DNA of 64,000 bases from Escherichia coli (GTDB lineage: Bacteria > Pseudomonadota > Gammaproteobacteria > Enterobacterales > Enterobacteriaceae). A program made the position numbers. Below are positions 31,801 through 34,800 of the stretch, piece by piece; within the stretch, counting starts at the first letter, position 1, and every line of letters begins with the position of its first letter. Where the stretch lies: NCBI RefSeq assembly GCF_030013205.1, contig NZ_CP122648.1, one strand, 5' to 3'.

Positions 31801-34800
31801 AAAAAGTTCGCCGTGCGCTGTATCTGGGCAAAATCGTTTCTTACGCTCAGGGCTTCTCTCAGCTGCGTGCTGCGTCTGAAGAATACAACTGGGATCTGAA
31901 CTACGGCGAAATCGCGAAGATTTTCCGTGCTGGCTGCATTATCCGTGCGCAGTTCCTGCAGAAAATCACCGATGCATATGCCGAAAATCCGCAGATCGCT
32001 AACCTGCTGCTGGCTCCGTACTTCAAGCAAATTGCCGATGACTATCAGCAGGCGCTGCGCGATGTCGTCGCTTACGCAGTACAGAACGGTATCCCGGTTC
32101 CGACCTTCGCCGCTGCGGTTGCCTATTATGACAGCTACCGTGCCGCTGTTCTGCCTGCAAACCTGATCCAGGCACAGCGTGACTATTTCGGTGCGCATAC
32201 TTATAAGCGCATTGATAAAGAAGGTGTGTTCCATACCGAATGGCTGGATTAATCTGATTTAAATCAATTAATCAATGCAAGGCCCGGAGAAACCCTCCGG
32301 GCTTTTTTATTATACAAAGCGGCAGGTTATGGCCTTTTTTTATAATTTATGGTTAAAAAAGCGATATAATACAGAGCCGCACAGCAGGATCGCTGCCTTG
32401 ACAGTTCATCTACATCAGCGTTAAAAATCCCGCAGTAGATGAAGCTGTGGTGGTGGATTAATGACCACTCTAAATGTTTAACCGGAAGAAGTCAGAGCTA
32501 ATGAAAATAACAATTTCAGGAACAGGTTATGTTGGTCTTTCAAATGGTATTCTGATTGCGCAAAACCACGAAGTGGTTGCACTGGATATCGTTCAGGCCA
32601 AAGTGGACATGCTTAACAAGAAGCAGTCACCGATTGTTGATAAGGAGATTGAAGAGTATCTGGCGACTAAAGATCTCAATTTCCGCGCTACGACAGATAA
32701 GTATGACGCGTATAAAAATGCCGATTACGTTATTATTGCCACGCCTACCGATTATGACCCAAAAACAAATTATTTTAATACCTCAAGCGTGGAAGCGGTC
32801 ATCCGCGATGTTACAGAAATTAATCCCGACGCTGTAATGATTATAAAATCAACTATCCCTGTTGGTTTTACAGAGTCAATTAAAGAACGGTTTGGTATTG
32901 AAAATGTGATCTTTTCGCCGGAGTTTTTACGCGAAGGGAAAGCACTTTATGATAACTTACACCCATCACGCATTGTGATTGGCGAGCAATCCGATCGCGC
33001 TCAACGTTTTGCAGCGTTATTACAGGAAGGCGCCATTAAGCAAGATATACCAACGTTGTTTACTGACTCAACCGAAGCTGAGGCGATTAAACTTTTTGCC
33101 AACACTTATCTGGCTATGCGTGTAGCGTATTTCAATGAACTTGATAGTTATGCTGAAAGCCTGGGGCTTAATTCACGCCAGATTATTGAGGGCGTATGCC
33201 TTGATCCGCGTATCGGTAATCACTACAACAACCCGTCATTCGGTTATGGTGGTTATTGTCTGCCGAAAGATACCAAGCAGTTACTGGCAAATTACCAGTC
33301 TGTGCCGAATAACCTGATCTCGGCAATTGTTGACGCCAACCGCACGCGCAAAGATTTTATTGCCGATTCTATCCTTGCACGTAAACCGAAAGTTGTTGGC
33401 GTCTATCGTCTGATTATGAAGAGTGGTTCGGACAATTTCCGTGCTTCCTCGATTCAGGGTATTATGAAGCGAATCAAGGCGAAAGGTGTGCCAGTAATCG
33501 TTTATGAGCCAGCGATGAAAGAGGACGATTTTTTCCGTTCGCGCGTGGTACGTGATCTGGATGCGTTCAAACAAGAAGCTGATGTTATTATTTCTAACCG
33601 TATGTCTGCCGATCTGGCTGATGTAGCAGATAAGGTTTATACGCGCGACTTGTTTGGCAATGATTAATTATTTTGTTTCATACTAAGAAAAGGCCCTAAT
33701 AAATTAGGGCCTTTTCTTATGGTTTTATAAAATCAAACTTTATAGAAGTTACGATACCATTCTACAAAGTTCTTTACCCCCTCTTTAACTGACGTTTCAG
33801 GTTTGAATCCTATTACGTCATACAGTGCTTTTGTATCAGCACTGGTTTCCAGTACATCACCGGGTTGGAGAGGCATCATATTTTTGTTGGCTTCAATACC
33901 CAGAGCCTCTTCTAACGCATTGATATAGTCCATCAACTCCACAGGCGAACTATTACCAATGTTATAGACACGATATGGTGCTGAACTTGTTGCAGGCGAG
34001 CCTGTTTCAACAGCCCACTGTGGATCTTTTTCTGGAATAACATCCTGTAAGCGAATAATAGCTTCGGCAATATCATCAATATAAGTAAAGTCACGCTTCA
34101 TTTTGCCGAAGTTGTAAACATCAATGCTTTTACCTTCCAACATGGCTTTAGTGAATTTAAATAATGCCATATCCGGACGTCCCCATGGACCATAAACCGT
34201 AAAGAAACGCAGCCCTGTGGTCGGTAAGCCATACAAATGAGAATACGTATGGGCCATGAGTTCATTCGCTTTTTTAGTTGCTGCATAAAGCGAAACAGGA
34301 TGATCTACAGAGTCATCTGTAGAGAAAGGCATCTTGCGGTTCATGCCATAAACAGAACTGGAGGAAGCGTAAAGTAGATGCTGAACATTATTATGGCGGC
34401 ATCCTTCCAGTATGTTCAGGAATCCAATCAGGTTTGCATCTGCATATGCATTGGGATTTTCAAGGGAGTAACGTACACCTGCTTGCGCAGCGAGGTTTAT
34501 TACGCGATCGAGCCGCTCGTCTGCAAACAGTGCCGCCATTTTCTCACGATCGGCCAGGTCAATTTTATAAAAACTGAAATTGTCGTGCTTGAGTAAATCA
34601 AGTCGTGCTTGTTTGAGGTTGACATCGTAATAATCATTTAAGTTGTCAATGCCTACAACCTGATGACCAGCTGCAAGAAGCCGTTTACTTACATAGAAAC
34701 CGATAAAGCCAGCAGCTCCCGTAACCAGAAATTTCATTTATAATCCTCGCTCAGGCTAGAATATAGCCAATCTTCATCTGGCATAACTGAAAGTTAAATC

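Follow-up and report, generated by a model that had tools for sequence, protein, structure and literature searches.

The complement-strand gene that lies between ugd and wzzB in this Escherichia coli chromosome most probably encodes a UDP-glucuronate (UDP-GlcA) 4-epimerase (EC 5.1.3.6), the E. coli counterpart of Klebsiella GlaKP/Uge, which would supply UDP-galacturonate (UDP-GalA) for the O139 O-antigen. We infer both the enzyme activity and the use of its product, and we put the probability of this reading at a little under nine in ten. The gene itself is an ordinary intact copy of a known enzyme; it represents known biology that has been loosely annotated, and not a new system.

Genomic context and gene structure

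The window (the whole stretch of 64,000 nucleotides that was analysed) is the colanic acid, O-antigen and his region of a porcine E. coli O139:H1. The O139:H1 strain W13-16 is 99.98% identical to the window over 34.8 kb, and the 2.8 kb around the epimerase gene are 100% identical in 17 porcine E. coli chromosomes, two of which are named O139:H1. The annotated order in W13-16 begins with the colanic acid genes, galF, rmlBDAC, wzy (O139), GT2, wzx (O139), GT4, GT4 and GT2, and continues with gnd, ugd, an 'NAD-dependent epimerase' on the minus strand, a partial pseudogene, wzzB and hisIE. The O139 cluster is the likely consumer of UDP-GalA. One glycosyltransferase gene shows a possible frameshift at a poly-A tract (30580-30586). 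The ugd product passes the equivalog cut-off of its NCBIfam model (796 bits, cut-off 757). The features of the locus are summarized in Table 1.

Table 1. Features of the gnd-ugd-wzzB locus and the adjacent O139 cluster (window coordinates)
Feature	Position	Strand	Basis
O139 O-antigen gene cluster (rmlBDAC, wzy, GT2, wzx, GT4, GT4, GT2)	20672..30749	+	ORFs; PGAP names in the W13-16 record, including 'O139 family' wzx and wzy
rmlB, genuine copy, within the O139 cluster	20672-21757		
gnd, ordinary E. coli allele	30846..32252	+	94-97% identical to K-12 gnd
ugd (UDP-glucose 6-dehydrogenase), divergent allele co-inherited with the epimerase gene	32501..33667	+	NCBIfam NF011631
Putative bidirectional terminator hairpin in the spacer between ugd and the epimerase gene	33684..33719	.	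Stem, folding energy, shuffles
Putative gla/uge orthologue, predicted UDP-glucuronate 4-epimerase, 334 aa	33733..34737	-	Homology, residues, synteny
5' region of the epimerase gene, RBS GAGGA	34738..34909	-	
K-12-type ugd 3' end remnant	34910..35016	+	Translation; K-12 homology; PGAP partial pseudogene
Terminator-like hairpin of the displaced native ugd	35026..35048	+	Terminator scan
wzzB, O-antigen chain-length regulator	35163..36143	+	NCBIfam NF012015 (600 bits, cut-off 267); annotation

The epimerase ORF starts with ATG, 6 nt downstream of its RBS. Its stop codon lies 65 bp from the end of ugd, which is read from the plus strand, so the two genes are convergent. The hairpin between them has a perfect 16-bp stem and a 4-nt loop; its folding energy is about -26 kcal/mol whichever strand is folded, and comparison with dinucleotide-shuffled sequences gives z = -5.8 and -6.5. 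Since TTTTCTTA comes after the GC-rich core stem (GGCCCTAAT/ATTAGGGCC) on each of the two strands, the hairpin can terminate ugd as well as the epimerase gene, and it is plausibly a bidirectional intrinsic terminator; a consensus terminator scan flags it on the plus strand only. Analogous hairpins, with an A-tract, a GC stem and a T-tract, are found in the other allele classes of this locus. The sequence-only reading had described a reverse-oriented ORF of 334 aa, convergent with ugd and separated from it by a bidirectional hairpin, and both elements were recovered at the positions given in Table 1. A promoter scan of the 5' region of the epimerase gene found no sigma-70-like consensus promoter.

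Protein family and closest relatives

The encoded protein matches Pfam PF01370 'Epimerase' (E=4e-58) and belongs, as first proposed, to the SDR family of epimerases, here of the extended-SDR type. None of the NCBIfam equivalog models reaches its cut-off for this protein, which is why PGAP gives it the generic name 'NAD-dependent epimerase'. Had its best homologues been GalE or a dTDP-sugar enzyme, the assignment to the UDP-GlcA 4-epimerases would have been wrong; the models for RmlB (TIGR01181, 148 bits, cut-off 365), GalE (TIGR01179, 146 bits, cut-off 262) and the TviC/WbpP type (NF011728, 123 bits, cut-off 760) all stay far below their cut-offs.

Among solved structures the best match is 5u4q from K. 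pneumoniae, with 634 bits and a global identity of 80.8%. It is followed by the Bacillus cereus UDP-GlcA 4-epimerase BcUGAepi (6zl6, 155 bits), WbgU (141 bits), WbpP (129 bits) and MoeE5 (6kv9, 123 bits). Apart from the Klebsiella orthologue, the UDP-GlcA 4-epimerase leads the UDP-GlcNAc 4-epimerase WbgU by a small margin. With 5u4q, located at the glaKP/uge locus, as the best match and 6zl6 as the next, the homology and HMM searches bear out the proposed resemblance to UDP-GlcA 4-epimerases. Homologues at 85-89% identity are widespread in Citrobacter, Klebsiella, Raoultella, Salmonella and others, and their names vary among 'NAD-dependent epimerase', 'UDP-glucuronate 4-epimerase', 'CapI' and 'dTDP-glucose 4,6-dehydratase'; the name 'UDP-glucuronate 4-epimerase' is given by JGI and some NCBI sources to homologues of 86-87% identity. 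We also considered dTDP-glucose 4,6-dehydratase (RmlB), the name attached to PDB entry 5u4q and to some of the homologues. This candidate was rejected on the RmlB model score, and the genuine rmlB is located in the O139 cluster.

In K. pneumoniae chromosomes the exact 5u4q protein is encoded by a gene convergent with ugd, between the capsule (cps) and rfb clusters. This is the position of glaKP/uge, a gene 'involved in galacturonic acid synthesis', and an epimerase gene beside ugd is the standard arrangement in Klebsiella (PMC3101168). On the strength of this shared position and the identity to 5u4q, the E. coli gene appears to be the positional orthologue of glaKP/uge. Klebsiella Uge has been described as converting UDP-GlcA to UDP-GalA and feeding the LPS core (PMC11282780). 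The two proteins have the same length, the gene order (gnd, ugd, then an epimerase gene convergent with ugd) is shared, and so is the predicted chemistry. The differences lie in the setting. The product goes to the LPS outer core in Klebsiella, whereas in E. coli O139 it most likely goes to the O-antigen; it is a core-genome gene in Klebsiella and is present in about 10% of E. coli genomes; the spacer between ugd and the epimerase gene measures about 945 bp and contains a small ORF in Klebsiella, in contrast to the short hairpin-bearing spacer in E. coli. Klebsiella uge has a Fur box and the E. coli gene has none: a search of the whole window for the validated Klebsiella uge Fur box, with up to 3 mismatches allowed, found nothing. 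One of the Klebsiella homologues (P0069) is a co-directional capsule-locus copy and not the canonical uge.

Active-site residues

The epimerase protein carries the NAD-binding motif GAAGFIG at residues 7-13 (G7-A-A-G10-F-I-G13; GxxGxxG). In BcUGAepi, Tyr149 is the catalytic base and Thr126, Ser127, Ser128 and Thr178 hold the substrate carboxylate; in the UDP-GlcA decarboxylases a Glu replaces Ser128 (PMC7984243). Ser126, Tyr151 and Lys155 of the E. coli protein align with the BcUGAepi triad Thr126, Tyr149 and Lys153. The carboxylate network is kept as well, with Ser126, Ser127, Ser128 and Thr180 (within R177-FFTVYGPWGRPDMA) in the places of BcUGAepi Thr126/Ser127/Ser128/Thr178. The conserved stretch RFFTVYGPWGRPDMA contains the active-site positions, and R187 is a further key residue. 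Because all BcUGAepi-equivalent residues are present and the position of BcUGAepi Ser128 is occupied by Ser, not by the Glu of the decarboxylases, an epimerase is supported over a decarboxylase. A UDP-GlcA decarboxylase (UXS/ArnA-like) was accordingly rejected as a candidate; the ArnA model gives 40 bits against a cut-off of 777.

BcUGAepi and MoeE5 share with the E. coli protein the SDR fold, the catalytic Tyr/Lys pair and the carboxylate-binding Thr(Ser)-Ser-Ser and Thr, although by bit score both are only distant relatives, and the first triad residue is Thr in BcUGAepi and Ser here. The UDP-GlcNAc and UDP-GlcNAcA 4-epimerases (WbpP, WbgU and TviC) and GalE use the same extended-SDR mechanism with a transient 4-keto intermediate; their substrates differ, and neither the TviC nor the GalE model is reached by the E. 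coli protein. The Ser-Ser-Ser motif is probably shared beyond the uronate epimerases. We concluded that active-site residues alone cannot separate uronate from N-acetylhexosamine epimerases.

Need for UDP-GalA in O139

The O139 O-unit is reported to be a heptasaccharide in which D-Glc, D-GlcNAc, L-Rha and D-GalA occur at 1:1:4:1 (PMC4906484, citing Marie et al. 1998). The O139 cluster provides dTDP-Rha through rmlBDAC and contains no gene for UDP-GalA. A genome search of O139-type genomes found a gla-like gene in one place only, beside ugd, and this gene is 100% conserved in the 17 O139-type genomes. With GalA in the O-unit and a single gla-like place, no source of UDP-GalA other than the epimerase gene is visible in O139, and we infer that it most likely supplies UDP-GalA for the O139 O-antigen. 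The earlier suggestion that the enzyme could supply UDP-galacturonate to the O-antigen therefore fits the published O-unit structure.

In the proposed pathway, Ugd from the neighbouring gene would oxidise UDP-glucose to UDP-GlcA. The epimerase, with a tightly bound NAD+, would then transiently oxidise C4 of UDP-GlcA, with Tyr151 as the base assisted by Ser126 and Lys155, a mechanism taken from the literature. A hydrogen-bond network of Ser126, Ser127, Ser128 and Thr180 would hold the C5 carboxylate such that the 4-keto acid is not decarboxylated. After rotation of the intermediate, hydride would be returned to the opposite face to give UDP-GalA, from which a glycosyltransferase of the O139 cluster would place the single D-GalA of the O-unit. 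The ugd and epimerase genes would together form a two-gene 'uronic acid supply' module, which came in by recombination and replaced the resident ugd except for its last 107 bp.

The same UDP-GlcA 4-epimerase could serve a polymer other than the O-antigen, either a K antigen or an LPS core modified with GalA, as it is in Klebsiella. The role of Uge in the Klebsiella core points in this direction, as do E. coli O8 strains with capsule loci, which have the gene in or next to the capsule cluster. Against it, the GalA of the O139 O-unit is a sufficient explanation for the gene, the annotation of the window locus lists no capsule-assembly genes, and no E. coli core type is known to contain GalA. We regard this as the least probable of the alternatives considered here.

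A different enzyme at the same position has been proposed for strain LL004. The LL004 paper states that gla 'always maps elsewhere' and names gne a complement-strand 334-aa gene between ugd and wzz; the LL004 O-unit contains GalA, and this epimerase gene has the same position and the same 65-bp spacing from ugd as the gene described here (PMC8657804). The gne label raises the possibility that the gene product is a 4-epimerase of the Gne/GalE type, providing the O-antigen with UDP-Gal or UDP-GalNAc, and the scores of WbgU and WbpP, slightly below that of BcUGAepi, would agree with such an enzyme. GlaKP is also said to have an 'extended substrate specificity', a phrase that appears in the title of Frirdich & Whitfield 2005. 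Several results speak for a uronate epimerase instead. The O139 O-unit contains neither Gal nor GalNAc (PMC4906484), the GalE and TviC model scores are far too low, and O113 and ST2350 have a separate galE-like gene within the cluster in addition to the epimerase gene. The GalA of LL004 itself is left without a gla gene in PMC8657804, where none was located. A Gne/GalE-type enzyme is therefore very unlikely, and the UDP-GlcA 4-epimerase remains our preferred assignment.

Annotation and significance

A 2020 review of E. coli O-antigens gives Gla as the UDP-GalA enzyme and places the genes 'elsewhere in the chromosome'. In Klebsiella both the enzyme and its location next to ugd are well established, and the equivalent gene of LL004 goes by 'gne', hence our description of the gene as known biology under a loose annotation. 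Under the name gla/uge, the gene would complete the UDP-GalA pathway of O139 and of other GalA-containing E. coli O-antigens. The name would replace 'NAD-dependent epimerase', 'gne' and 'dTDP-glucose 4,6-dehydratase', and would let genome sequence predict GalA content. O139 strains cause oedema disease and post-weaning diarrhoea in pigs. Since the O-antigen of these strains is a candidate target for vaccines, a full list of its precursor genes is useful for producing recombinant glycoconjugates. The finding implies no new biology, and its main value lies in annotation and in the prediction of chemistry from serotype.

Distribution and origin of the ugd-epimerase module

A homologue of the epimerase gene was found in 530 of the 5426 complete E. 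coli genomes; among the carriers, identity to the window gene is at least 95% in 278 genomes and 60-80% in 255. The sequence-only reading had stated that the gnd-ugd-wzz interval normally has no gene on the opposite strand. This holds for most strains, as the carrier count indicates, and K-12 has nothing in the 145-bp gap between ugd and wzzB. The rarity of the arrangement was overrated, since about one E. coli genome in ten has it and it is standard in Klebsiella. The O139-type allele is intact, at the same site and followed by the same downstream pseudogene fragment in all sampled loci, which came from O139, O113:H21, O115 (NCTC10444), an O153/O178-family strain, an untyped strain and an O8 strain with a second polysaccharide locus.

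The ugd of the window is only 74.4-74.7% identical to K-12 ugd and shares 95-97% identity with ugd from other strains that have the same epimerase allele. A 1.23-kb segment with the hairpin, the epimerase gene and its 5' region (33678-34909) is absent from K-12, and K-12 homology resumes at 34910, inside the last 107 bp of K-12 ugd. The ugd remnant is a scar left by the recombination event that imported the ugd-epimerase module. Classes drawn from the ugd alleles coincide with those of the epimerase alleles, and identity between classes is about 77%. In the class of the O8/capsule strains, ugd shares 95-96% identity with its K. pneumoniae counterpart, and the two module genes are co-directional. 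Because the ugd and epimerase alleles co-vary by class, both genes move as a unit.

These observations suggest a broader reading, for which we see about even odds: ugd and the epimerase gene may constitute a portable 'UDP-GalA supply' cassette, of which at least four deeply diverged lineages (~77% identical), one of them recently derived from Klebsiella, occupy a single E. coli site, and the presence and intactness of the cassette would predict GalA in the O-antigen or capsule. If true, this reading would correct the literature on the gne label and on gla that 'always maps elsewhere', and the nonsense allele of O111 described below would represent decay after the sugar falls out of use. A literature search on the GalA content of O113, O115, O153 and O178 gave no usable statement; the O113 and O115 O-antigens probably contain GalA.

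The module was clearly imported, judging from the ugd remnant and the low identity of ugd to its K-12 counterpart, and the epimerase gene could be a functionless passenger that hitch-hiked with ugd and the O-antigen cluster and is idle in O139. O111 provides an example of loss. Its O-unit lacks GalA and consists of a GlcNAc-Gal-Glc backbone that bears two colitose residues (PMC10304059). The O111 homologue, at the same site and 77.8% identical, is a pseudogene in which codon 85 is changed from CAG to TAG (Q85*). The exact 63-base stretch with this stop was found in 59 genomes, of serotypes O111:H8, NM/H-, H2, H11 and H21. The nonsense allele is consistent with decay where UDP-GalA is unused. 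Intact copies also stand beside clusters that are not known to make a GalA-containing product. In O139 the ORF is intact, all catalytic residues are present and the sequence is identical in 17 genomes; O139 needs UDP-GalA, and the search of O139 genomes revealed no second gla-like gene. An idle passenger in O139 is thus even less likely than a Gne/GalE-type enzyme, and a working UDP-GlcA 4-epimerase is favored. The tracking of GalA by the gene is imperfect, as EA13 and GPEC1356 have an O111-like cluster yet an intact epimerase gene.

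Replacement of the Resident ugd Gene

The stretch between the epimerase gene and wzzB retains 107 bp of a K-12-type ugd (see the table below). This remnant is a recombination scar: the resident ugd was swapped for the divergent ugd-epimerase module. In strain EC261, IS4, IS1, and IS100 have piled up together with an rfbA fragment between gnd and the ugd-epimerase module (locus L010, 7240-11543), which marks the gnd/ugd-epimerase junction as a recombination hot spot. Fragments of IS600/IS30 separate the epimerase gene from wzzB in O100:H21. Compared with K-12, the window wzzB is only 71-87% identical in its centre (35326-35725), whereas its 3' end reaches 96-98% identity, which suggests a mosaic wzz allele.

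ugd remnant and epimerase gene copies in the window and in other genomes
Feature	Locus	Coordinates	Remarks
3'-terminal remnant of a K-12-type ugd plus the terminator-like hairpin belonging to it	Window	34910-35048	107 bp; upstream of wzzB
Epimerase gene downstream of ugd, co-directional	L011	12977-15343	E. coli O8, Klebsiella-like capsule locus
Epimerase gene downstream of ugd, co-directional	L012	12828-15343	E. coli O8, Klebsiella-like capsule locus
Epimerase homologue, pseudogene	L002; also L019, L020	13001-14005 (L002)	O111:NM (L002); Q85*, CAG to TAG

Epimerase Homologues in Other Genomes

The ugd of K. pneumoniae is 95-96% identical to that of the two O8 strains, and this level of identity indicates that the ugd of these capsule-locus strains is a recent import from Klebsiella. 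A ugd fragment adjoins the ugd/epimerase pair in one of them (L012). In the O111 type, the 63-mer containing the premature stop was found in 59 genomes spanning five H types; the dead epimerase allele thus travels with the O111 cluster.

The solved structure of the Klebsiella protein in PDB entry 5u4q was deposited as 'dTDP-glucose 4,6-dehydratase', and the same protein is encoded at the glaKP/uge position (Klebsiella locus L017, 7001-8005). The deposited name is wrong, and some database homologues are labelled likewise. On the E. coli orthologue of 5u4q, too, the RmlB model fails.

Poly-A Tract in the Last GT2 Gene of the O139 Cluster

A poly-A tract inside the ORF at 29956-30597 (window 30580-30586) reads A7 in the window vs. 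A8 in the O139:H1 strain W13-16. The missing A shifts the reading frame, so that the O139 cluster's final GT2 glycosyltransferase is 213 aa long in the window instead of 264 aa. Either a sequencing error in the homopolymer or a genuine on/off frameshift could account for this difference. The A7 stretch of the window has an exact match in 10 of the 19 genomes carrying the O139 cluster and none in the other nine.
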